Positions 12,542 through 25,645 of a DNA stretch of 64,000 nt are shown piece by piece. The translations under genes and the position numbers were made by a program. The stretch lies in assembly GCA_963794305.1 (NCBI GenBank), contig CAWCDQ010000017.1:80522-144521 (forward strand), in the 5' to 3' direction. The notes beneath the pieces are model-generated. The model saw only the letters and a list, made by a program, of their open reading frames with translations, made no database searches and had not been told where the DNA came from. Position 1 is the first letter of the stretch. Every line of letters starts with the position of its first letter. The stretch comes from an uncultured Acidobacteriota bacterium. GTDB taxonomy: Bacteria > Acidobacteriota > Vicinamibacteria > Vicinamibacterales > CAVVIG01.

Positions 12542-12555
12542 AAAGGATCACGCGT

Positions 12556-14476
12556 CTAGACGTCGAGCTCCTCGGCTTCGTCCGCTCGTTCCATGATGAA
12601 GCGGAAGCGCGCCGAGGCGTCCTTGCCCATCAGCTCGTTGATGACCCGGTCGGTGACGAGCTGATCGGTCACTTCGACGCGCAGCAGCCTGCGCGTCCGC
12701 GGGTTCAGCGTCGTCTCCCAGAGCACTTTCGGCATCATCTCGCCGAGGCCCTTGAAGCGCGTGATCTCCGGCGTCCCCCGGCCGTTCTTGCCCTGGCCAT
12801 GCTGCTTCAGGATGGTGTCCTTGTGCGCATCGTCGAGCGCCCAGAACGTCTCCTTGCCGATGTCGATGCGGTAGAGCGGCGGCTGCGCGAGGAACACCTT
12901 GCCGTTGGCGATCAGCTTCGGCAGGTGACGGTAGATGAACGTCAGCAGCAGCGTGGCGATGTGATTGCCGTCTGAGTCGGCGTCGGCGAGGATGATGATC
13001 TTGCCGTAGCGCAGCTTGGCGATCTCGAAGTTGTTGCCGAGGCCGCAGCCGATCGCGGTCACCAGATCCGACAGCTCCTTGTTCTCGAGCACCTTGGCCA
13101 GCGACGCGCTCTCGGTATTGAGCACCTTGCCGCGCAGCGGGAGGATCGCCTGCCGCGCGCGATCGCGTCCCTGCTTCGCCGATCCGCCTGCCGAATCGCC
13201 TTCGACGATGAAGAGCTCGCTGTTCTCGCTGCTGGAGTTGGTGCAGTCGCTCAACTTGCCAGGCAGGTTGAGGCGCGTCGACGTCGCGCTCTTGCGCGAC
13301 ACCTCGGCCTGTGCGGCGCGGCTCGCTTCGCGCGCGCGGGCGGCGAGCACGATTCGCCCGACGATGGCTTCGGCGACGCTGCTGTTGTGATTCAGCCAGT
13401 GCTCGAGCGCCGGGACGTATCACGCCGTCCACGGCGGAGACGAGCTCGGGGTTGTTCAACCGATCCTTCGTCTGTCCCTGGAACTGCGGTTCCTGAATGA
13501 ACACGCTCAGGACGCCGGTCAGCCCCTCCCGGATGTCTTCGGCGGTCAGCGTCACGCCCTTCGGCGACAGGTTGTGCGTCTCGATGTAGTTGCGCACGGC
13601 CTTGCCGATTCCGGCGCGCAGGCCGCTCTCGTGCGTGCCGCCGGATCCCGTCGGGATGCCGTTCACGTAGGAGCGGACGTGCTCGTCGGTCGCTTCCGTC
13701 CACTGCAGCACGAGGTCCAGCCGCAGCCCCTCGTCCTTCGTGAGCGTGAAGGGCGCTTCGTGCACCGGCTTCGCGCCGCGCTCCGCAACGATGCGCTTCA
13801 GGTAGTCGACGATGCCTTCGCTGTGCTCGTAGACGATTTTCTCTTTCGCGCCTTCGTCCTCGAACGTGACCTTCAGCCCTTTGTGGAGATAGCTGGCGAC
13901 CTCGAGCCGTTCCTTGATGATGGCGGGATCGAATTCGATTTTCGGGAAGATCGCGGCATCGGGATGAAAGTAGACCTTCGTGCCGCTTCCGCGCGCGGGT
14001 CCGATCTTCTTCAGCGGGGTGACGGGCTTGCCCTGCTTGAAGCGCATCTCCCACTGGGCCCCGTCGCGCTTGACCGTGGCGACTAGATCTTTTGACAGCG
14101 CGTTGACGACGCTGGCGCCGACGCCGTGGAGGCCGCCCGCCGTCTTGTAACTCCCGTGCTCGAATTTTCCGCCCGCGTGGAGAACGGTAAAGATGACCTC
14201 CAACGCGCTCTTCTTCGATGTCGGGTGTTTGTCGATCGGAATGCCGCGGCCATCGTCTTCGATGGTGATAGCTGATCCATCGGCGTGAAGGGTGACCCAA
14301 ATATTTGAAGCGAAACCGTTCATCGCTTCGTCGACGGAGTTGTCGAGCGTCTCCCAGACGAGGTGATGCAGACCGGCCGAGCCAACGCCTCCGATGTACA
14401 TCCCGGGGCGCTTCCGAACGGGCTCGAGACCCTCTAAAACTGTGATGTCTTTGGCGGTGTAGTTCGCAGATGCCAT
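12556..14476 (-). CDS. type IIA DNA topoisomerase subunit B (GyrB/ParE family, ParE-like signatures); one frameshift near 13408
   Basis: N-terminus [25 protein letters not shown], then [31 protein letters not shown] and [10 protein letters not shown] (Toprim). ORFs 12548-14476 and 12556-13350 join at ...[17 protein letters not shown].... Confidence 0.85.
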
Positions 14477-14658
14477 GTATATAATGTGCGCCTTCTGAAG
14501 CCCTTACTGCGGCGTCTTGTGCATCACGATTGTAGCGGTATTTCAGAGTTATCCAGCCGCCGCAGCCGCCGTTTCCGAGGACGTGCCCGTCCCCGGTGGC
14601 ACCGTCACGCTTGCGCACGTCTCTCGGTATCGAGCCCGTACCCGATCGCGGCCGCTTC

Positions 14659-17396
14659 ATGTACGAGCTCACTCGCCTTCTCTACAACACACCTGACGGG
14701 CGAAAGCCGTCGGCCGACACCTACCTGAACGCCGCGCGCCAGGCGGCCGGGCGTGGACGTCAGAATCTCGACACGCGGCCGGGCGATGTCGTGCCGGTGC
14801 CGCTGACCGCGGAAATCTGGAGCAGCGCGATCTTCCATCGCACCGTCGCGCCGCGCGAGCTGGTGAACGCCATCATCATCGATCGGTCGGCGTCGCTCCT
14901 GTGCCTCGGCCTCGCGTCGCTGGACGATGGCACGCTGGGTTTTTTCGCGGACCGCCCGCAGCTGCTCGAGCGGATCTACGAGCGATCGGCGCCGGTCTTC
15001 GCGGTGCTCGCGGCGAGCCTGCGGGTGCAAGGCAACCGTGTGGTGCCGCCGGGTGCGGTTCGACAGGGGCAGGCCGAGCGTGGCGACGTCGAGGCGCTGT
15101 GGGAAGGCGTCGTCGTCGAGAAGGTGACGCGGGCCGATCGGTTCATTCAACAGCTGCTCGAGCTCAATGAAGGACGGCTGGCGTACGTGTACGACGTCAT
15201 CGGCGGACTCGATCCGCCGCGACGCGCCTTCGCGCTTGGCTTGTGGATGCCGAATGCGACGATGCGGGCAGAACGCTTCAAGGCGCTGACGATCGGCGCC
15301 GGCCGCCTACCGTGAGTCGCACTTTCGCACGCTGCCTCTGGCGCGCACGTCCTACGACCTGTCGATGACGCTGGCGCGCGTCGCGGCCAATCCGGACGGC
15401 ACGCCGGCGGCACCCGCCTCGCGCGGCTTCTGGATGCGCGTGTTCTCCGGCACCGACCTGCCCGAGGATCCGGCCCGTCTGCTTCGCGGCATCGACGAGG
15501 ATCCCATCGACGCGGCATGGCTGGTCGAGAGCATCGGAACGCTGGACGTCAGGATGCGCGCCGAGCGGCTGGATCAGATTGGCTTCTGCCAGCGGCTGTT
15601 CAACGCGGCCGACGCCGCGGCGCGGCCGGACGTGTTCATCGCGTGTCGCGCCATGAGCCGGTACCGCATGCTGATGTGGACGCTCGAACGCATCGGCATC
15701 CGGGCGCCTTCGGTGTACGCGCAAGCCGCGAGGCAGGCGGCGCGGATCGGGGCATTTGAAGGCCGGCGCGGGTTCGAGGCGCAAGCGCAGTTTCAGGGTG
15801 CGCTGGCGATTCTCGCGCGCGCGAGGATGGTCACCACGCTGACCGTCGAGAAAACACAGGCGCTGATCGAGCAGCTCGCGGCGCTGCCGCTGACGGAGGA
15901 CGGCCGCTATGCCGGCGCAGTCGCCCGCTGGCTGCGCAGCGACCTCGGTGGCGCGATCAAGAGCGCCGAAACATCGGAGCTCGCTGGTACTCGCCGCGAT
16001 GTCGGGCCCGCCGTCGGGCGACGGTCCGGTTCCGCGGCCGGTGACGTGGGAAGGGCAGGCCTATCGCCTCGATCTCGGCGCGGCCGAGCGGCAGCGCCTT
16101 CACATCGTTCGCGAGAAACAGGAAGGCGCGCCGCTCGATGTGCCGCTCGATCTCGCCGCGGCCGCGAGGATGCTGGCCACCGACAAGATCGCGATCGGCG
16201 ACGTCGAGCCGATCGTCACGAAGCTGACGGCGGCCATCGACGAGCTTCCACGCCGCGTTGGCCGCGACAACGACGAGACGACGCCGCCCGGCGTGCCGGC
16301 CGCGTCCAATCCACGCGAAGTACTGCGCAAGCTGACCGAGGAGCTCACCAGGGATCTCCGCAACAAGGACATCAAGCGCGTCGTCCGGGCGTCCGAGCCG
16401 CTGCTCGAACTGTCGGACAGGGTGCTTGCCGACGTTCTGCTGTCGATCGCGTATGCCGCCGACGTCGGCGACCCCGACGGAACCGTGCTGCTCGCCGAGG
16501 ACGTGTCGCGGCGGCACGATTTCGGATTCAACACGCGCGAGTCGGAGACGCGGCTGCGCGCGGCGTGGGCCATGCCGCGCGTCGAGATCACGCCCGGTCT
16601 CCCGTGGCACGTCAGCGGCTCGCTGCTGGGCCTCGATGTCGGGCTGTCGCAGCTCGCGTTGCGCCGCCTCAACTTCGAGCGCGTTCTCGAAGCGCCGAAG
16701 CTGACGTCGAACGAACGCGACAGCTTCGCGATCTCGGTCTCGCTCTTGAACCCGTTCGCCCTTCGCGACGCCGATCGCGACGCCATCGCCGAGGCGGTCT
16801 CCGCAGGACAGCGGCGGCTGGGGTCGTTGCGCAACGGCGGACAGGCGGCGGCGCGCGCGGCGGCCGAGGCGGCGTTCGACGAGATCGCCGATGAGCTGTC
16901 GATCGAGGGGTGGCGGCGGCGGGCCGTGCGCTGGATGCTCGCGCACGAGGCGGACCGGGTTCCGTCGATGTTTTCGCTGACCGAAGTGATGGTACTGGGC
17001 AGCGGCCGTATCGGCGCGCTCAACGCATGGGGCATGTCGATGGTCAACGTCGAGGGCTGCGTATGTTCGCGCTTGACGCCGCCCGGCCGCTGGCCGACAT
17101 TGTTGGGGCGTCCGTCGCTCGGGTTGACCGCAGCGGCAGTGGCGGACGTTCACCTGCACGTGGCCATCATGCTGAGAGAGATGCGTCTGCCGGCGGCCAT
17201 CGCGAAAGTCGTGCTGTCGGGCGCCGTCCAGGACTTCATCGACGATGCCAGGCCGACCGACGACGCCGACTGGCTGTCGCTCGTTCGCGCCGCCCGGGCG
17301 GCGAACCGCGATCGCGTCGAAGACTACATTGCCGCCGCCACGGCCGCGGGCCCGTTCGTGCCCGACGCGGGCCGGAGAGTCCCGGAGCAGCCATGA
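14659..17396 (+). CDS. large (~912 aa) hypothetical protein, no recognisable domain; two frameshifts (~15302, ~15981)
   Basis: Three ORF fragments (14596-15315, 15365-16894, 15909-17396) read on colinearly (...KALTIGA/AAYRESHFRTLPLARTSYDLSMTLARV...; ...AIKSAETSE/LVLAAMSGPPSGDGPV...). Composition is non-repetitive, unlike off-frame GC ORFs. The stop overlaps the next ATG (ATGA). The start (ATG 14659 or GTG 14596) is uncertain. Confidence 0.55.
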
Positions 17397-18550
17397 TCTT
17401 CAGGCGCGCGGTGCTGTCGCTCGCGATCGCGGCGTGCGCCGGCGCCACGCTGTCGCTCTGGGCGCAGGGCACGTCCGATCTGCCGGTGCTGAAGATCCTC
17501 TCGCCGGACGACGAGGCGTTCGTGACGGGACCGACGCTGCTGCGCGCCACCATCACGCCGTCCGATGGGGTGACCGGCGTCACCTTCTTCGTCGACGGCC
17601 GGCAGGTGTGCGCGCTCACGGCGCCGCCCTTCGAATGCGATTGGGACGCGGGCGCCACGATTACCGCGCACCAGATCCGCGCGGTGGCGACGGTCCAGGG
17701 CGGCTCCCGCATCGTGCAGACGGTGCGCACCAAGTCGGTCGGCTACGTCGAGCGCGTGGACGTGGACGTCGTGCAGGTGACCGTCACGGTCTCGGATGGC
17801 CGCGGGAAGTTCGTGCGCAGCATCCCGCAGTCGGCGTTCCACGTATTCGAGGACGGCCATCCCCAGGCCGTGACGCACTTCACGTCGGAGGACGTCCCGC
17901 TGGAACTGGTCGCCGCCATCGATATTTCGGGAAGCATGGCGCCGGCCATGCCGAAGCTGAAGACCGCGGTGAAGCAATTCCTCGGCGACGTCCCGCCGCA
18001 GGATCAGGTGACGCTGCTCGGCTTCAACGACAACATCTTTACGCTGACGCGCAAGGCCACCGATCCCGCCGAGCGCGCCAAGGCGGTGGACCGTCTCGCA
18101 CCGTGGGGCTCGACCGCGCTCTACGACGTCCTGCTGCGCGGCGTCGAGATGCTGGGGCGACAGGCCGGCCGGAAGGCGCTGGTCGTGTTCACCGATGGTG
18201 AGGATCAGGGGAGCCACGCCACCATCAACGACGTCGAGCGCCGCCTGCAGTCGAGCGACGTCACGCTGTACATGATCGGCCAGGGCCGCGGTGTCACGAT
18301 GGAACCGCTCAAGAGAATCATGGAGCGCCTCTCGGTGCCGACCGGGGGCCGCGCGCTCTTCACCGACAGCATCGACGAGCTGCACGCGGCGTTCGCCGAT
18401 CTTCTCGACGAGCTCTCGAACCAGTATCTGCTCGGCTACCAGTCGACCAACTCCCGCCGCGACGATGCGTGGCGGAAGATCAAGGTCGACGTCGACGGTC
18501 ACCACGACGTGCGGGCGCGGCAGGGCTACCGCGCGCTGGCGGGCAAATGA
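17393..18550 (+). CDS. secreted VWFA-domain protein of the acidobacterial TIGR03436 type
   Basis: Intact. Signal peptide MIFRRAVLSLAIAACAGATLSLWAQG; MIDAS-like DISGSM. The overall pattern (VDVVQVTVTVSDGRGKFV, ALVVFTDGEDQGS, NQYLLGYQ) matches the VWFA-related acidobacterial domain as I remember it. Confidence 0.7.
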   Translation: MIFRRAVLSLAIAACAGATLSLWAQGTSDLPVLKILSPDDEAFVTGPTLLRATITPSDGVTGVTFFVDGRQVCALTAPPFECDWDAGATITAHQIRAVATVQGGSRIVQTVRTKSVGYVERVDVDVVQVTVTVSDGRGKFVRSIPQSAFHVFEDGHPQAVTHFTSEDVPLELVAAIDISGSMAPAMPKLKTAVKQFLGDVPPQDQVTLLGFNDNIFTLTRKATDPAERAKAVDRLAPWGSTALYDVLLRGVEMLGRQAGRKALVVFTDGEDQGSHATINDVERRLQSSDVTLYMIGQGRGVTMEPLKRIMERLSVPTGGRALFTDSIDELHAAFADLLDELSNQYLLGYQSTNSRRDDAWRKIKVDVDGHHDVRARQGYRALAGK

Positions 18551-18555
18551 CTGTC

Positions 18556-18650
18556 AGAAACCGCAGAGATCGCAGAAACCGCAGAGAGAAAGTCGCAGAG
18601 AAAGATTCTTGTTGGTTTTCCTCTGCGCTCTTTGCGTGCTCCGCGGTTCC
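18556..18650. repeat. CGCAGAG/CTCTGCG-type long imperfect palindrome (family B)
   Basis: Left arm agaaaccgcagagatcgcagaaaccgcagagagaaagtcgcagagaaag; right arm ggttttcctctgcgctctttgcgtgctccgcggttcc. About three quarters of positions pair. Starts 6 nt after the upstream stop. Confidence 0.8.
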
Positions 18651-21287
18651 AGTTCTGCGGCGCAGCAGCAGCCGCCGCCGAAACCGAGCTTCCAGTCGTC
18701 GGTTGAGGTGACGTCGCTCGACGTGACGGTGGTGGACGACAGGGGCAAGCCGATCACCAACCTGACGCCGGCCGACTTCAACGTCCGCATCGACGGAAAT
18801 GCCCGGCGGGTCGTGACGGCGGAGTGGGTGCCGCTCATCACCGAGGCGAGCGCGGCGGCGCCGGCCCCGCCCGACGGCTACAGCACCAACGAGAGCGCCA
18901 CCGGCGGGCGCCTGATTGTCATCGCCGTCGATCAGCCGAACATCCGCTTCGGCGGCGCGATCGCCATCACGAAGGCTGCCAACGGGTTCATCGATCGCCT
19001 GCTGCCCTCGGACCGCGTGGCGGTGGCCGGCATCGGCGTCGGCGCGCCATCGACCGTGTTCACGTCGGATCGTACCCGCGTCAAGCAGGCCATCGCACGG
19101 ATGGTCGGGCAGAAGATGCAGGAGATGAGGACCGCGCACAGCATCGCGCTGGTCGAAGCCATCTCGATCGAGCGCGGCGATCCGGGCGTGCTGGAGAACG
19201 TGCTCTCGCGCGAGTGCGCGGGGTTGAGTTCCCAGGAAGTTCAGGCGTGCCGGTTCGAGGTCGAGACCGAGGCGCGCGAGAAGGGGCGCAGCGCCAACCA
19301 GGAAGGCAACGAGAGCGTGCAGGCGCTGACGGCGCTGTTCATCGGCCTGCGCGCGATCGACGCGCCGAAGACGCTGATTCTGATCAGCGAGGGGTTCATC
19401 GCCAACGAAAACATGTCGCGAATCATTGAGCTGGGCACGATGGCGGCGTCGGCGCGGACGAGCCTGTACGCGCTGAAGCTCGATAGCCAGTTGTTCGACG
19501 TGACAAACGCGCGCGCCCCGATCAACGCGTTTGCCGATCGCCAGGCCCAGGCGGAAGGGCTCGAGATGCTCGCCGCGTCCTCGCGCGGCGCGTTGTTCAC
19601 CGTCACGGGCACGGCCGAGTCGCTCTTCGAGCGCATCTCGTCCGAGCTCTCGGGCTACTACCTGCTCGGCGTCGAATCGGATGGCCGCGACAAGGACGGC
19701 AAGCCGCACCCGATCCGCGTCGACGTGCCGCGCAAAGGCGCCGTCGTTCGATCGCGGCGCCAGCTGGTGAACGCGGCAAGCGATCGGCCGGCGCCACGAA
19801 CCGCTCGAGCCGCCGCCAACGCCGCGCTCGCGTCGCCGCTGCTCGTGACGGCGATGCCGCTGCGGGTGGCGTCGTTCGCGCTGCAGGGACCGGAGCGCGA
19901 CAAGGTGCAGCTCCTGCTCCACGCCGACATCGGCACCGACTACCCGGCGTCGAAGGTCGTGTCGGTCAGCTACGTGATCACCAACGCCGAGGGGCGGGTC
20001 GTGGACACCAAATCGGCCGACATGCGCCTGCTGCCGGTGATGACCGGCGTGCCGTCGCCGTTGCAGTTCACGGCCGGCGCGAGCCTGCCGCCGGGCAATT
20101 ACACGCTCAAGCTCGCCGTCGCCGAAGGCGATCGCGTGGGCAGCGTGGAGCACGTGGTCCGCGCGGTGCTGCCGTCCGCCGCCGGCGGCCTCACGCTCAG
20201 CGAGTTGATGGTCGGCGGCCCGCTGGAGGTCGGCGAGCTGCTCACGCCGACGATTGGCTATCAGATCAATTTCAGCTCGATCCACGGCTACGTGGAAGCC
20301 TACGGCGCGAAGACCGAAGGGCTCACCATGGAGTTCGAAGTCGCCACGACACCCGACGCCCCCGCGCTCCTGAACGTCGACGTGCCGATCCACCCGGTGA
20401 ACGAGACCCGCGCGATCTTCACGAAGGTGATGCCCTCGCACCAGCTTCCGCCGGGCAAGTACGTGCTGCGCGCGATTCTCTCTGCCGACGGTGCGTCCAT
20501 CAGCACGCTGACGCGAGGCTTCGAGGTCGCGCCGCCGAAAGTGCTGTTGACCTCGGCGGAGGGCATCGGCAACGTGTCGGTGGATGCGGAGCTGTTCCTG
20601 CCGGTCGACGAGAACACGATGTCGCCCGTCTTCCAGCGCGACCTCGCGGTCGACGAGACGACGCTGGCGCCGTTCCGCGAGCGGGTGACGCCAAGCGTGA
20701 AGAGCGCGTTCGACCAGGGGGTGGTGTTCCTGGCCGCGGGCGACTTCACGAAGGCCGAAGCGAGCTTCAAGAAAGCGATCGCGCCCGACGTCGACAGCAC
20801 GTCGCCGCTGGTGTTTCTCGCGGCCTCATTCGCCGCCGCCGGCAAGGATCACGAGGCCGCCAGCGCGTGGCAGACGGCGCTCGTCGACGGCACGGATCTC
20901 CCGCAGATCTACGTCTGGCTGAGCGAGGCGCTCCTGCGGACGCACGACTTCGGCGGTGCGCGCGCGATACTCGAAGAGGCCGTCGGCAAATGGCCGGCCG
21001 ACACGCGCTTCACCAAGCCGCTGGCGATGTTGTACGGAACGTTCGGCCGCGGGCGCGAAGCCGTGCGCACCCTCGAACGCTACCTGGACGACCGACAGGA
21101 CGACCGCGACGCCTACTTTCTCGCGGTCCAGTGGATTTATACGGTTCACTCCGGCGGCGCGGTCGTGCACAGCCGCGCCGAGGACAGGAAACGCGCCCAC
21201 GAGTACGCCGAGGCGTACTTGCGGTCACGAGGACCGCAGGCAGCCCTCGTGAAGCAGTGGGTCGATTATCTGGATACCGACAAGTAA
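18609..21287 (+). CDS. secreted VWFA (TIGR03436-like) protein with C-terminal TPR-like region; start uncertain
   Basis: Intact long ORF (18291-21287). The conserved part starts at QQPPPKPSFQSSVEVTSLDVTVVDDRGKPI. The tail is TPR-like (AEASFKKAI...YLDDRQDDRDAYFLAVQW). The only in-frame starts near the hydrophobic leader are TTG 18609/18612. ATG 18547 (ATGA overlap with the upstream stop) is in another frame. Confidence 0.65.
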   Translation: MLVFLCALCVLRGSSSAAQQQPPPKPSFQSSVEVTSLDVTVVDDRGKPITNLTPADFNVRIDGNARRVVTAEWVPLITEASAAAPAPPDGYSTNESATGGRLIVIAVDQPNIRFGGAIAITKAANGFIDRLLPSDRVAVAGIGVGAPSTVFTSDRTRVKQAIARMVGQKMQEMRTAHSIALVEAISIERGDPGVLENVLSRECAGLSSQEVQACRFEVETEAREKGRSANQEGNESVQALTALFIGLRAIDAPKTLILISEGFIANENMSRIIELGTMAASARTSLYALKLDSQLFDVTNARAPINAFADRQAQAEGLEMLAASSRGALFTVTGTAESLFERISSELSGYYLLGVESDGRDKDGKPHPIRVDVPRKGAVVRSRRQLVNAASDRPAPRTARAAANAALASPLLVTAMPLRVASFALQGPERDKVQLLLHADIGTDYPASKVVSVSYVITNAEGRVVDTKSADMRLLPVMTGVPSPLQFTAGASLPPGNYTLKLAVAEGDRVGSVEHVVRAVLPSAAGGLTLSELMVGGPLEVGELLTPTIGYQINFSSIHGYVEAYGAKTEGLTMEFEVATTPDAPALLNVDVPIHPVNETRAIFTKVMPSHQLPPGKYVLRAILSADGASISTLTRGFEVAPPKVLLTSAEGIGNVSVDAELFLPVDENTMSPVFQRDLAVDETTLAPFRERVTPSVKSAFDQGVVFLAAGDFTKAEASFKKAIAPDVDSTSPLVFLAASFAAAGKDHEAASAWQTALVDGTDLPQIYVWLSEALLRTHDFGGARAILEEAVGKWPADTRFTKPLAMLYGTFGRGREAVRTLERYLDDRQDDRDAYFLAVQWIYTVHSGGAVVHSRAEDRKRAHEYAEAYLRSRGPQAALVKQWVDYLDTDK

Positions 21288-21290
21288 AGG

Positions 21291-21382
21291 GAACGATCGG
21301 AAGGAACCGCCGAGGACGCAGAGATCGCAAAGAATGTTTTTCTCTGCGGTCTTTGCGATCTCCGCGGTTCCTTCTGATCGTT
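21291..21382. repeat. family B palindrome filling the gap between convergent stops (VWFA-TPR / NYN)
   Basis: gatcggaaggaaccgccgaggacgcagagatcgcaaagaa - tgtt - tttctctgcggtctttgcgatctccgcggttccttctgatcg. About 32 of 40 arm positions pair. Followed by an 18/19-nt tandem duplication at 21374-21410 that includes the NYN stop codon. Confidence 0.8.
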
Positions 21383-21400
21383 TACCGGTTGCTGATCGTT

Positions 21401-22939
21401 TTACCGGTTGCCGAAGTCGTCCGAATGCGACGCGGGCGACTTCTTGCCCCGCGTCGATTTTCGGGCCGCCGGCTTTTTCGCGGCCGCCTTCTTCGGCGCG
21501 GCCGCCAGCGTAGGCCGCTGCGCGCGGGCGCGCGGCTTTCGCGGCTTGGCACGCCCGAGCAGCTCCGCCGTCGTGTCAATCGGGATCTGCGGGACCTGCT
21601 CCGCCTCGGTCTCGCTCGGCTCGGCTTCAATCGGCAAGGCCGGCGCCGCCTCGATCGGCTGGTTTTCGTACGTGTCTTCCACGTCTGGCTGCGGAAGATT
21701 CGGACGGCTCACATGCGCATGCGGGTGCGCGTGCGTCCCCACGCCCACGCCCTGCAGCGCCGAGCCCGGGAACACGCGAAGGCCGCCGCGCCTGTCGCGC
21801 TCGACGCGCACGAATCCCTCGCGCTGACACGCCTTCAGCAGATCCATCAGCCCGCCGAACCCGTAGCGCCGCTCGTCGAAGCCGCCTTCGGTCTGACGCA
21901 GAATCTGTTTGACGTTGCGCAGATACATCGGCCAGCGCGCGCCCGTGGCCGCGCCCAGAATGCGTCCTGCTTTCTGCACGCCGTCCGCCTGATCGCCGAG
22001 CGGAGGGCCGAGCGGTTCCTGGTGTGGCTGGTTGAAGCCTGCCGCTGGAACCGGGCCGGCCGGCGCCGGCGCCTGGAAGCCGTGCGACACCACCGGCGCA
22101 CTCTGCTCGGCCGGAAGCACCGGCGCGACAGCTCCCGCCTCCTCGCCTTCCGCGAGAGCGCGAGGCTCTTCGACGAAGCTTTCGTTGAGCTCCACCGTCA
22201 CGCTGCGGCCCGACGTCTTCAGGTGCACGTAGCCGGACTTCGCCAGCTTCTCGGCGAAGTCGAGGAACGACGAAGCGCCGTAGTTCCGCTCGGAGAACGT
22301 CGAATCGAGCTGCAGCAGCGTGCTCTTCAGCAGGCCGGTCTGCGGAGTGACCTCGCGGTCGGCGAGAATCTTCAAGGCGCGGCGCACCACCGGCAGAGCC
22401 TGCGCGATCGGAGCGCTCGCCGCGGCCGCCGGCATCGGCCGCCCTTGCTTGGCGGCGGCCTTGCGCACGCCCGAGAGGTTTTCGTAGGCGATGAACTCGT
22501 GGCAGTTGCGCTGCAGGATCATGCTCGTGAACGCACGGCCCCCGACGACGAACACCTTCTTGTCGTACTGCTTGAGTTTCTCGACGAGCGACAGGAAGTC
22601 GCTGTCGCCTCCGACAATCACGAACGCGTTGATGTGCGAGTGGGTGAACGCCATCTCGAGCGCGTCGAGCGCCAGGTTGATGTCGGCGCCGTTCTTGTCG
22701 CCGCCCGGCGTCATGTTGCGCTGGACCAGACGAATGGCATGTTGCGTCAGCGAGCGGCTGTACTCGCCCGAGCGGGTCCAGTCGGCGTAGGCGATCTTGG
22801 TGACCACCTCGCCGCGTTCCTTGATGGCGTCGAGGATGATGCCGACGTCGAATTGCTGGCCGAGTGTGGTCTTGACGCCAATCTCGATGTTGTCGAAGTC
22901 GATGAAAACGGCGATGTTCAGGCGGTCTTGATGAGGCAA
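21401..22939 (-). CDS. NYN (LabA/DUF88) nuclease-like domain protein with two OST-HTH/LOTUS-like regions and a Lys/Ala/Pro-rich basic tail
   Basis: Intact 512-aa ORF, TTG start. N-terminus IAVFIDFDNIE...GDKNGADINLALDA...VIVGGDSDFLSLVEKLK is typical of NYN. Two repeats of the ...FDERRYGF/FSERNYGASSFLDFAEKL... type. Tail is KPRKPRARAQRPTLAAAPKKAAAKKPAARKSTRGKK. Confidence 0.75.
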   Translation of the reverse strand: MPHQDRLNIAVFIDFDNIEIGVKTTLGQQFDVGIILDAIKERGEVVTKIAYADWTRSGEYSRSLTQHAIRLVQRNMTPGGDKNGADINLALDALEMAFTHSHINAFVIVGGDSDFLSLVEKLKQYDKKVFVVGGRAFTSMILQRNCHEFIAYENLSGVRKAAAKQGRPMPAAAASAPIAQALPVVRRALKILADREVTPQTGLLKSTLLQLDSTFSERNYGASSFLDFAEKLAKSGYVHLKTSGRSVTVELNESFVEEPRALAEGEEAGAVAPVLPAEQSAPVVSHGFQAPAPAGPVPAAGFNQPHQEPLGPPLGDQADGVQKAGRILGAATGARWPMYLRNVKQILRQTEGGFDERRYGFGGLMDLLKACQREGFVRVERDRRGGLRVFPGSALQGVGVGTHAHPHAHVSRPNLPQPDVEDTYENQPIEAAPALPIEAEPSETEAEQVPQIPIDTTAELLGRAKPRKPRARAQRPTLAAAPKKAAAKKPAARKSTRGKKSPASHSDDFGNR

Positions 22940-23091
22940 ATCTGATTCCTAGCGTTTGAGAGTCGCTTGTATGTTTCGCGTCGAACAACAGCGGCTGGAG
23001 ATTCCAGCCAGAGAAGCAGTGTTCGCGCCAGCCAACCTCCAGGTGAGGTTGCGGGGCGATTGTACTTCAAAACCGTAAAGCCGTGTCGGCG

Positions 23092-25512
23092 TTATCCGGA
23101 AGTGAGCGGCGGCGGGGCCTCCGGCGACGGCCAGATGACCCTGGTGAACTGGCCGCGCTGCAGCAGTTCCCGGCCTTTCCCGCCCCGCCCGGTCACCTCG
23201 TACTTGCCCGTGCTGATCGTCTGTTCCGCCCCGCGCGAGGTCTCGACGGTCAGCAAATCGCGGTCGCCCGTCGAGGCGATCGCGCCAAGCAGGCGGTCCT
23301 CGTCGCTCAGCTTGATGAGGAGCACCCCCTTGCCCGGTCCCGACAGGAAGTTCACCTCGTCGGCCTTGCACAGGATGCCGCGCGCCTCGGCGGTCGCCGC
23401 AATCAGGACCTCGTCGCCGGTGAGCCTGGCGACGTTGACGATCTCGGCGCCGTCGGACGGGCGGGCGTAGCGGCGCCCGGCGCGTGTGCTCGGTTCGACG
23501 AAGCCGTCGAGGTTGAAGCGCAGCGCATACCCGTCGCTCGATACCGCGACGGCGTGAACCGGCGCCGCATCGCCTTCCTTTTTCGGCGTGATGTTGCCGG
23601 CGACTCGAGGATCCAGGCTCAGGGCCGCGACGAGCTTCTCGCCGTCTTTCAGCTTGAACTGCTTCTGGATCGGCTCGCCGTAGCCGGTCGATGCCGGCAC
23701 GTCGATGATCTTGCTCGTGTAGGCGGCGCCGAAATTCGAGAAGAACACGACGCTGGCGCGCGTGCTGCCGGCGCAGACCGCCATCACCTGATCGCCTTCA
23801 CGCAGCCTGGTGGTCGACAGATCCTTCACTTCCTTCTGCCGCTTCACCCAGCCGTCACGCGAGACGATGACCACGTTGTCTTCGTCGACGATGAAGTCCT
23901 CGGCGGAGTACTCGGGCTCGCCGCTGTCGCTGGCAATCGCGGTGCGGCGCTTGTCGCCGTACGTCGTGCTGATCTGCTCGAGCTCGGACCGTACGAGCTT
24001 CCACCGGTTCTCTTCGCTCTTGAGCAGCGCGTTGATCTGCCGCGCCCGCGATCGCTTCTCCTCGAGCTCCTTGCGCACCACCAGGATCTCGAGGCGGGCG
24101 AGGCGATAGATCTTGAGCTCGAGGATGGCGTCGGCCTGCTCGGCGTCGAGCTTGAACCGCGCCATGATCTTCTCGGCCGAGTCGGCCTTGCCGTCCGACT
24201 TGCGGATGATCCTGATGATCTCGTCGAGGGCGTCGAAGACCGTTTCGAAGCCTTCGAGGATGTGGATGCGCTTCTTCAGCGCCGCGAGCTCGTGCTCGAG
24301 CCGCCTGGTGACGACCTCCAGGCGGAAGTGGAGGAAGTGCCAGAGGATCTGCTTGAGATCGAGCCGTTCGGGCCGGCCGACCTCGGGATTCTCGGTCGGA
24401 ATCAGGCAGGTGAGGTTGACCGCGAAATTCAGCTGCAGCGACGTGTGCTTGAAGAGATACGCCATGATCATCTTCTCGTCGGCGTCTTTCTTCATCTCGA
24501 CGGCGATGCGCACGTCCTCGGTCGACAGGTCCTTCACGTCGAGCAGCTGCGGCAGCTTGCGCGCGATGACCACGTTGGCGATCTGCTCGACGAGCTGCGC
24601 CTTGTTCACCGTGTACGGCACGCTGTCGATGTAGATCGTCTTGGTCGAACGCGTCTCCGGCCCGATGTCCCAGGTGCCGCGCAGGCGAACCGATCCCGAT
24701 CCCGTCTTGTAAATTTCCTTCAGCTCCTCTTGTGAATTGAGAATCTGCCCGCCCGTCGGAAAGTCGGGCCCTTTGACCCAGCGGCACAACTGCGCGGTGC
24801 TGAGCTCGTCGTTGTCGAGCAGCTTGACGAGCGCGGTGCAGATCTCGCCGAGGTTGTGCGGAGGGATGTTGGTGGCCATGCCCACCGCGATGCCGGTGGC
24901 GCCGTTCACGAGCAGGTTCGGCACTCGCGCCGGCAACACAACCGGCTCCGTCTTCGTGCCGTCGTAGTTCGGACGGAAGTGCACCGTCGATTGCTCAATC
25001 TCGGAGAGCATCTCGTCGCTGATGCGGGTGAGACGGCACTCCGTGTAGCGCATGGCCGCCGCGCTGTCGCCGTCGAGCGACCCGAAGTTGCCGGAGCCGT
25101 CGACGAGCGGATAGCGCAGCGCGAACGGCTGCGCCATGCGCACGAGCGTTTCGTACAGCGCCGAATCGCCGTGCGGATGGTAGCTGCCCATCACGTCGCC
25201 GACGACCTTGGCGCACTTCCGGTGCTTCGCGTCGGCGGTGAGGTTCTGTTCCCACATCGTGTAAAGGATGCGGCGCTGCACCGGCTTCATGCCGTCGCGG
25301 ACGTCGGGCAGGGCACGCGACGTGATGACCGAGAGCGCGTAGTTCAGGTACCGCGACTGCGCGGCCTCGTGCAGCGCGACGTCCGAAGTGCTGCCCGGTC
25401 CGTGGCCGCCGCCGCCCAGCAGCGCGCCGCGGGCCGCGGCGTCGCGGCCGGACTCGCCGCCGCCGGGGGGCTCGAGGTTGTCGAACAGGTCGGGTGATTT
25501 GCGTTTCGCCAT
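23092..25512 (-). CDS. type IIA DNA topoisomerase subunit A (GyrA/ParC family, ParC-like KPVQRR signature)
   Basis: Intact. [64 protein letters not shown] (catalytic Tyr). ATG 25512 ([10 protein letters not shown]) preferred over GTG 25569. Confidence 0.85.
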
Positions 25513-25645
25513 GGATTCGGGGTCAGGAAGCCGGCCGCTAGAGTACTGCGAGCCGGCGGCGGCTGTCACGATTCACGAGCAAGTCGCCATTTTTCAACGT
25601 GTTTTCCTTCTATACATCTGATGCGTGATGTGTGATGATCCAGAG

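Follow-up and report, generated by a model that had tools for sequence, protein, structure and literature searches.

We describe an uncharacterised module of three genes for exported proteins which lies between the two subunit genes of a type IIA topoisomerase in an uncultured Vicinamibacterales bacterium (Acidobacteriota; GenBank assembly GCA_963794305.1, contig CAWCDQ010000017.1, positions 80,522 to 144,521 of the forward strand). This whole stretch of 64,000 nucleotides is referred to as the window, and all coordinates are given within it. The first gene (14486-17396, plus strand) encodes a mostly alpha-helical protein of an unnamed family, here called the orphan, which comprises about 967 residues when read through with the help of its intact homologues. 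It is followed on the same strand by VWA1 (17393-18550), in which Pfam and NCBIfam models identified an Ig-like Big_7 domain and a VWA domain of the TIGR03436 type with an intact metal ion-dependent adhesion site (MIDAS). The third gene, VWA-TPR or VWA2 (18547-21287, plus strand), combines a TIGR03436 VWA-like domain and a beta-rich middle part with a C-terminal TPR region recognised by TPR_19 and other TPR models. Signal peptides are present on all three proteins. The co-directional genes are coupled by ATGA overlaps at 17393-17396 (orphan/VWA1) and 18547-18550 (VWA1/VWA-TPR), and they are inherited together. Judged from these sequence features, the three genes appear to form an operon in which the orphan-VWA1 pair is the obligate core and VWA-TPR a frequent accessory. 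The module is real, conserved and lineage-wide in soil Vicinamibacteria. Its products probably act in a so far uncharacterised extracytoplasmic complex of the envelope, with the helical protein and the MIDAS-bearing VWA1 at its core. The location of the module in the genome is incidental.

Genomes of Acidobacteria each encode dozens of secreted VWA proteins of the TIGR03436 family, for which we know of no role. The module ties one subfamily of these proteins to a specific adjoining partner of a very large unnamed family, and the orphan-VWA1 pair offers an experimental way to learn how the envelope works in a soil lineage that is dominant yet poorly cultured. A literature search on TIGR03436, on VWFA-related proteins of Acidobacteria and on VWA proteins of Vicinamibacteria returned nothing relevant and no paper on the module. 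An earlier interpretation, made from the letters of the window alone (the sequence-only reading), had described a four-gene cluster wedged between the topoisomerase genes in which a large cytoplasmic protein is coupled to secreted ones. The two features that had stood out are artefacts: the wedge between the topoisomerase genes reflects synteny, and the seemingly cytoplasmic orphan reflects frameshifts. Two false leads thereby fall away, namely a connection with the topoisomerase and the pairing of a cytoplasmic protein with secreted partners.

A conserved trio of neighbouring genes

The interval was laid out largely as the sequence-only reading had seen it. The two minus-strand topoisomerase genes (B subunit 12548-14476, A subunit 23092-25569) are 8.6 kb apart. 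Between them lie the large plus-strand open reading frame (ORF) of the orphan, the Big_7 and VWA gene, joined to the orphan stop through the ATGA overlap, a further TIGR03436 protein that has a TPR tail and ends at 21287 (107 bits) and a minus-strand gene for a NYN nuclease with an OST-HTH/LOTUS domain (21401-22939; Pfam NYN 8.7e-31, OST-HTH 1.6e-9). The G+C content of the region (63-70%) gives rise to many spurious ORFs, and the real genes were set by family searches and homologues.

One genome per species was scanned for near relatives, which yielded 39 loci with orphan identities of 42-100%. All of them come from metagenome-assembled genomes (MAGs) of Acidobacteriota/Vicinamibacterales, bar one mislabelled contig. 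In every near locus the order parE / orphan, VWA1, VWA-TPR / NYN, parC is kept as far as the contigs reach, and some loci carry an additional insert before NYN. The mislabelled contig (L034, CAZCEL010000361.1, 5.4 kb, 'uncultured Bifidobacteriaceae') carries the orphan, VWA1 and a parE that is 84% identical to that of the window, and is almost certainly a mis-binned Vicinamibacterales contig.

Beyond these near relatives, a profile search detected the orphan family in 21 of 401 genomes of the phylum, nearly all from the same order or class; as this search scored only two first-look candidates per genome, the absences are soft. Two orphan copies each were present in the genomes G178 and G228. 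Fifteen loci from the phylum search and three reached via metagenomic proteins make up a set of 18 distant loci, in which the identity to the orphan is 28-36%. A Big_7-VWA gene directly follows the orphan in 17 of the 18, and a VWA-TPR gene adjoins in 13, three times on the opposite strand. In most related loci VWA1 starts close to where the orphan stops, its ATG lying at -4 or no further than +18 nt from that stop. Neither parE nor parC was detected near the trio in the 18 distant loci, nor was a NYN match found there within about 8 kb, and an all-against-all comparison of the neighbouring ORFs of 15 distant loci revealed no other conserved neighbour.

Trees calculated for 48 orphan/VWA1 pairs share the groupings L077+L084, L088+L093, L082+L095 and L090/L091/L094, and the shared groupings include those which separate paralogous copies within one genome. 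The pairwise distances of the two proteins show a correlation of 0.96, with the orphan evolving about twice as fast as VWA1. We gave the paralogue pattern and the changing genomic contexts more weight than this correlation because shared descent inflates it. Moreover, a metagenomic protein of 1325 residues (P0276) joins orphan, Big_7 and VWA in one chain. It is taken as a real natural fusion since no signal peptide is left at the junction.

Accordingly, the coupling between the orphan and the VWA and VWA-TPR genes, which the sequence-only reading had proposed, is genuine, and the trio recurs across Vicinamibacteria. Neither of the two conditions which that reading had named as refuting it applies: homologues of the trio are neighbours in other genomes, and the orphan matches no well-characterised family. 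The proposed unit of four genes held for these three but not for the NYN/LOTUS gene, which is absent near all 18 distant trio loci and adjoins parC without the trio elsewhere.

The orphan is exported and matches no described family

The orphan had been taken for a cytoplasmic protein without a signal peptide. However, a signal peptide opens every one of its intact homologues and SEDVPVPGG comes next, and this N-terminus is present in the window in other frames than the three which had been joined before. The read-through protein starts with GTG at 14486, opens with MRLLKPLLRRLCITIVAVFQSYPAAAAA and continues with VSEDVP. Its signal peptide is encoded from 14486 to about 14569 (plus strand; read-through and homologues), and the mature part has about 930 residues. 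The homologues P0001-P0120 are intact, mostly 930-1000 residues long, and no membrane-grade hydrophobic segment was found in homologues beyond the signal peptide. As the orphan is itself exported, its coupling to secreted VWA proteins is no longer an oddity. More generally, frameshift-ridden long-read MAGs can conceal signal peptides.

The family is large. With the 911-residue read-through of the previously joined frames as query, 448 relatives were found at E <= 0.001 among 8,000 candidates scored, and the best 120 of the 448 are all annotated as hypothetical and lack a Pfam domain. When 1.84 billion representatives were searched exhaustively with HMMER, the family comprised 1,710 clusters (50% identity) at E <= 0.001 and 706 at E <= 1e-30. 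The view that the orphan belongs to no described family was upheld by searches of Pfam, NCBIfam, PADLOC and the PDB, none of which returned a match. The Pfam search covered three orphan fragments and the full-length homologue P0017, and no consistent family emerged among 44 members at E <= 5. In the PDB, sequence and profile searches with alignments of 27 and 44 sequences produced only noise, the best hits being designed coiled coils at E 0.034.

A mostly helical AlphaFold2 model based on a 38-sequence alignment reached a predicted local distance difference test (pLDDT) value of 89.1 and a predicted template modelling score (pTM) of 0.89. An earlier model from a shallower alignment had reached a pLDDT of 72 and found no fold match. 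When the better model was compared by Foldseek with the PDB and BFVD, nothing was found at E <= 0.001; the best matches had E 0.024 (probability 0.08) and E 0.24, with probabilities of at most 0.10 and template modelling scores of at most 0.15. We tentatively propose, at somewhat less than even chance, that the orphan family founds a fold unseen in solved structures and forms with its cognate MIDAS-VWA an undescribed type of extracytoplasmic complex specific to Vicinamibacteria. If true, a VWA subfamily of TIGR03436 would for the first time have a defined partner, in a class which is among the commonest bacterial lineages of soil.

Residues invariant among 44 diverse members include W112, G142, W206, R370, Q437, W482, H677, W694, G711, D717, P903 and D929. 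Besides, D147 is invariant and E522 and D529 are near-invariant. Invariant residues lie in the conserved motifs RHDFG, PWHxxGSLLGLD and GCxCxR. An HExxH metalloprotease motif was considered and discarded, for P0017 reads HEADH but the window HEADR, with HEPxR as the consensus. The distant metagenomic homologue P0213 (1178 residues) has a C-terminal extension resembling a fibronectin-type-III domain (…TLTWEATSGATSYEY…YYWQVRATN…), which would be consistent with an extracellular location of the orphan family.

VWA1 retains and VWA-TPR has lost the MIDAS

Both VWA proteins score above the curated TIGR03436 cut-off of 81.25 bits, VWA1 with 181.2 and VWA-TPR with 106.6 bits. The MIDAS of VWA1 is complete (DISGS, GSTALYD, FTDGED), and its residues are at least 95% conserved in 54 orthologues. 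In VWA-TPR the site is degenerate, with DQPNI in place of DxSxS and SEG in place of TDG, and this state is conserved in 39 orthologues. Signal peptides were found in the orthologues of both proteins; those of the trio typically end in A-Q. Conserved pairs of cysteines occur in the trio proteins. The motif IAAC in the window's VWA1 signal peptide raised the idea of a lipoprotein, which was rejected as its cysteine is not conserved among orthologues.

The TIGR03436 family is greatly expanded in this genome, which contains at least 21 matches above the cut-off in 6.1 Mb. Several of these paralogues stand in tandem, for example at C45:75282-79923 and C25:52971-58140.

A predicted envelope complex

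In the mechanism that we propose, the orphan and VWA1 would be exported and then assemble, in a fixed stoichiometry, either in the periplasm or on the surface of the cell. The cation in the MIDAS of VWA1 would be completed by an acidic side chain, supplied either by the orphan (D147, D717 and D929, or E522 and D529 as candidates) or by an external ligand bound by the complex. VWA-TPR could be an optional adaptor or scaffold. Such a complex would probably serve in envelope or matrix adhesion, or in the binding of a polymer.

Several observations weigh against this proposal. The contact between the orphan and VWA1 is predicted from indirect evidence, namely gene coupling, co-phylogeny and one fusion, and the fusion P0276 is a single metagenomic record. 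Adjacency and the mirror-tree correlation are partly due to shared descent. In one distant locus (L086) no VWA gene lies within 20 kb of the orphan, and VWA-TPR is lacking in five distant loci. No lipobox or sorting tag was seen, and the trio proteins may be periplasmic, on the outer surface or secreted. The missing fold match applies to the PDB and BFVD only. Finally, the invariant histidine and aspartate residues of the orphan could equally mark the active site of an enzyme.

The last point leads to the main alternative, which is compatible with the same architecture. The orphan might be an exported enzyme of a new fold, acting for example on an extracellular or envelope polymer, with the VWA proteins as accessories for substrate binding or anchoring. 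The invariance of H677, D717, D929 and R370 across the diverse members, their position in the strongly conserved motifs named above and the occasional orphan without a VWA gene all speak for such a role. However, neither sequence nor fold matched a catalytic family, and the motifs fit no known active-site signature among those testable. Moreover, evolution at about twice the rate of VWA1 would be unusual for a core enzyme, and the fusion and the tight coupling argue for a 1:1 stoichiometry. Hence, we regard an enzymatic orphan as unlikely and favour the envelope complex of helical protein and VWA1.

Comparison with known systems

Genes 2 and 3 are members of TIGR03436 ('acidobact_VWFA' in NCBIfam), an uncharacterised paralogous family whose members are exported. 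The family model is silent on partners or function. Here, a subfamily with Big_7 and an intact MIDAS goes together with one specific helical partner of large size, and a second subfamily, which has lost the MIDAS and carries a TPR tail, is the accessory.

The Bat (Bacteroides aerotolerance) operon encodes a MoxR ATPase, a DUF58 protein, the VWA proteins BatA and BatB, the TPR protein BatC and BatD. It resembles the trio in that two VWA proteins and a TPR element are combined in one envelope-directed operon. Yet no gene like MoxR, DUF58 or BatD was found among the conserved neighbours of the trio in 15 distant loci, and MoxR and DUF58 are absent from the Pfam lists of L002, L004 and L093-L095. 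In addition, the VWA proteins of the trio have cleavable signal peptides whereas those of Bat are membrane-anchored, the TPR region is fused to a VWA-like domain, and the helical partner has no Bat counterpart.

The vWA-MoxR-VMAP ternary systems, reportedly described by Kaur, Burroughs, Iyer and Aravind, are cytoplasmic conflict or signalling systems defined by a MoxR AAA+ ATPase. They too couple a VWA protein genetically to a large helical protein whose function is otherwise unknown. In the module, however, there is no linked ATPase and all three proteins are exported. The Pfam models of VMAP found no match in 44 orphan members.

Surface adhesins with a MIDAS-bearing VWA domain have been described for Myxococcus (CglB; bioRxiv 10.1101/2020.07.22.216333) and Bdellovibrio (Bd0875; PMC11003981). 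They are exported, adopt a VWA fold like that of integrin I domains and have a complete MIDAS, and serve here only as a working analogy for how an acidic ligand might be bound through a metal ion. Beyond the VWA fold no sequence relationship with the trio is detectable, and these adhesins are reported to work with gliding or invasion machinery, which is absent from the module. The module also differs in having no lipoprotein anchor, and its obligate large helical partner is module-specific.

Frameshifts in the assembly

Insertions and deletions were mapped by collinear alignment with the closest relative fetched, L019 (85.5% nucleotide identity over 13 kb). The sequence-only reading had assumed two frameshifts in the orphan gene, at about 15302 and 15981. 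The alignment gives four +1 insertions instead, at 14518, 14620, 15304 and 15987. A further +1 insertion was located in the parE gene at about 13415.

The block after 15981, which had been called free of frameshifts, is probably not quite so. The start and frame of VWA-TPR were compared with L008, L010, L013, L016, L019 and L094. Its ATG at 18547 overlaps the stop of VWA1, and the first 14 codons (MTVRNRRDRRNRRE) agree with those of the relatives. However, the frame opened by this ATG is one off from that of the mature protein, which is read from about 18608. Because the frames of the start codon and of the mature protein differ, a further insertion or deletion near 18590-18607 is likely; alternatively, translation might start at a TTG at 18608. 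In this gene a purine-rich repeat of AGAAACCGCAGAGA units at 18551-18607 encodes the arginine-rich n-region of the signal peptide (MTVRNRRDRRNRRE...). Within this stretch the relatives differ by insertions or deletions of 3 and 15 nt, and the window is out of frame.

Split genes are not confined to the interval. A gyrA-type gene on contig C3 (G000:C3:165532-166891) and several TIGR03436 VWA paralogues of the same genome are also divided between frames. In the long-read-style assemblies L003, L040 and L046, genes are similarly fragmented that are intact in sister assemblies (e.g. L003 vs L002). The frameshifts of the orphan and parE copies look like assembly errors, because the parE-like gene, the gyrA-like gene on C3 and VWA paralogues are split as well, the mapped shifts are all +1 and sister assemblies show the same picture.

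It could be argued instead that the orphan and parE genes of this genome are true decaying pseudogenes, given that five frame-breaking insertions fall within 2.6 kb (13415-15987) and none or one within the following 5 kb. We consider this quite improbable. Each of the five is a +1 insertion, and the sequence that they interrupt is otherwise well conserved, with 89% amino acid identity to P0001. Genes that are normally indispensable, such as the parE-like and gyrA-like ones, are split too, as are other VWA genes of this genome, and the three assemblies mentioned above are fragmented in the same manner where their sisters have intact genes. Errors of this type are spread over the genome; yet within the 13 kb compared with L019 they cluster before 15987.

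Gene order and genomic position

The recurrence of the trio might reflect an inherited gene order without functional coupling, that is, unrelated exported proteins kept side by side in one lineage. A family nearly confined to one class provides few independent observations, and the large number of TIGR03436 genes in the genome makes chance neighbours likelier. Nevertheless, the partner is always of the same Big_7-VWA subfamily, placed directly downstream with an overlap or a few nucleotides away, and this pattern holds across differing genomic contexts and in duplicated copies. Considering also the congruent trees and the fusion, we find gene order without coupling very improbable and retain the coupled trio.

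The genes that flank the trio lie outside the module. In the B-subunit gene (12548-14476, minus strand) the Pfam domains HATPase_c, DNA_gyraseB, Toprim and DNA_gyraseB_C are distributed over two frames. The A subunit (23092-25569, minus strand) matched NF004044, the model for non-gyrase type IIA enzymes, with 803.7 bits (cut-off 654), and stayed below the gyrA equivalog cut-offs of TIGR01063 (714, cut-off 877) and NF004043 (729, cut-off 902). A second A-subunit gene of the gyrA type is present on contig C3 of the same genome, and each of five relatives has two A/B topoisomerase pairs, the second at 39-45% identity. The flanking pair is best assigned, from these comparisons, as ParE/ParC-like (topoisomerase IV-like) and not as gyrase, because NF004044 was passed, the gyrA cut-offs were missed and a second A-subunit gene on C3 and two pairs in relatives were found.

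Five other families of the order have parC upstream of parE in the same orientation, and the content of the interval differs among them (L096-L100). The two genes are adjacent in G110. Their interval contains a NYN gene, a BNR/sortilin-like protein and DUF2207 in G178, and a NYN gene, an alpha/beta hydrolase and an unknown gene in G343. G399 has transposases of the DDE and IS1 types in this place, and G228 has glutamine synthetase III (GSIII) and pyruvate:ferredoxin oxidoreductase (PFOR). These differences between families deprive the wedge between topoisomerase subunits of the meaning once attached to it. The parC-parE interval is a site of variable cargo, and the trio is one of several cargoes. 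The parE-flanked loci form a single branch in the orphan/VWA1 trees, and this monophyly is consistent with a single ancestral insertion of the trio into a rearrangement-prone interval, which would have been followed by vertical inheritance in the clade.

That the trio is functionally tied to the topoisomerase, as an accessory to chromosome segregation or decatenation, is hardly credible despite the strict retention of parE, trio, NYN and parC in 39 species-level loci, since the evidence at hand already contradicts it: all three proteins are exported and so have no access to DNA or topoisomerase, 18 further loci carry the trio with no topoisomerase gene detected, five other families have unrelated cargo or nothing in the interval, and the single parE-flanked branch fits one insertion.

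A NYN gene with an OST-HTH/LOTUS domain stands directly downstream of the parC-like gene in three families of the order, namely that of the window and those of G178 and G343, independently of the trio. In the other two families the genes beside parC lie at L096 6507-8039 and L097 8492-9640. Because G178 and G343 have NYN after parC without the trio, the adjacency of NYN and parC predates the insertion of the trio and is independent of it. An association of the NYN/LOTUS protein with topoisomerase IV is possible. A defence-system reading was dropped, for PADLOC returned only a weak generic NYN match, which came from the NYN gene.

On the other side of the trio, 9 nt separate the ATG of parE (minus strand, 14476) from the GTG of the orphan (14486). 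This spacer (14477-14488 in the window) reads GTATATAAT and holds a perfect TATAAT, and the order CAT-GTATATAAT-GTG is kept in L010, L013, L017, L019, L021, L022 and L027. Such an order suggests either divergent promoters that overlap or a transcript with little or no leader. A promoter scan of 14000-23500 found no sigma-70 consensus sites. Between parC and the NYN gene, a terminator-like hairpin is located at 23010-22992.

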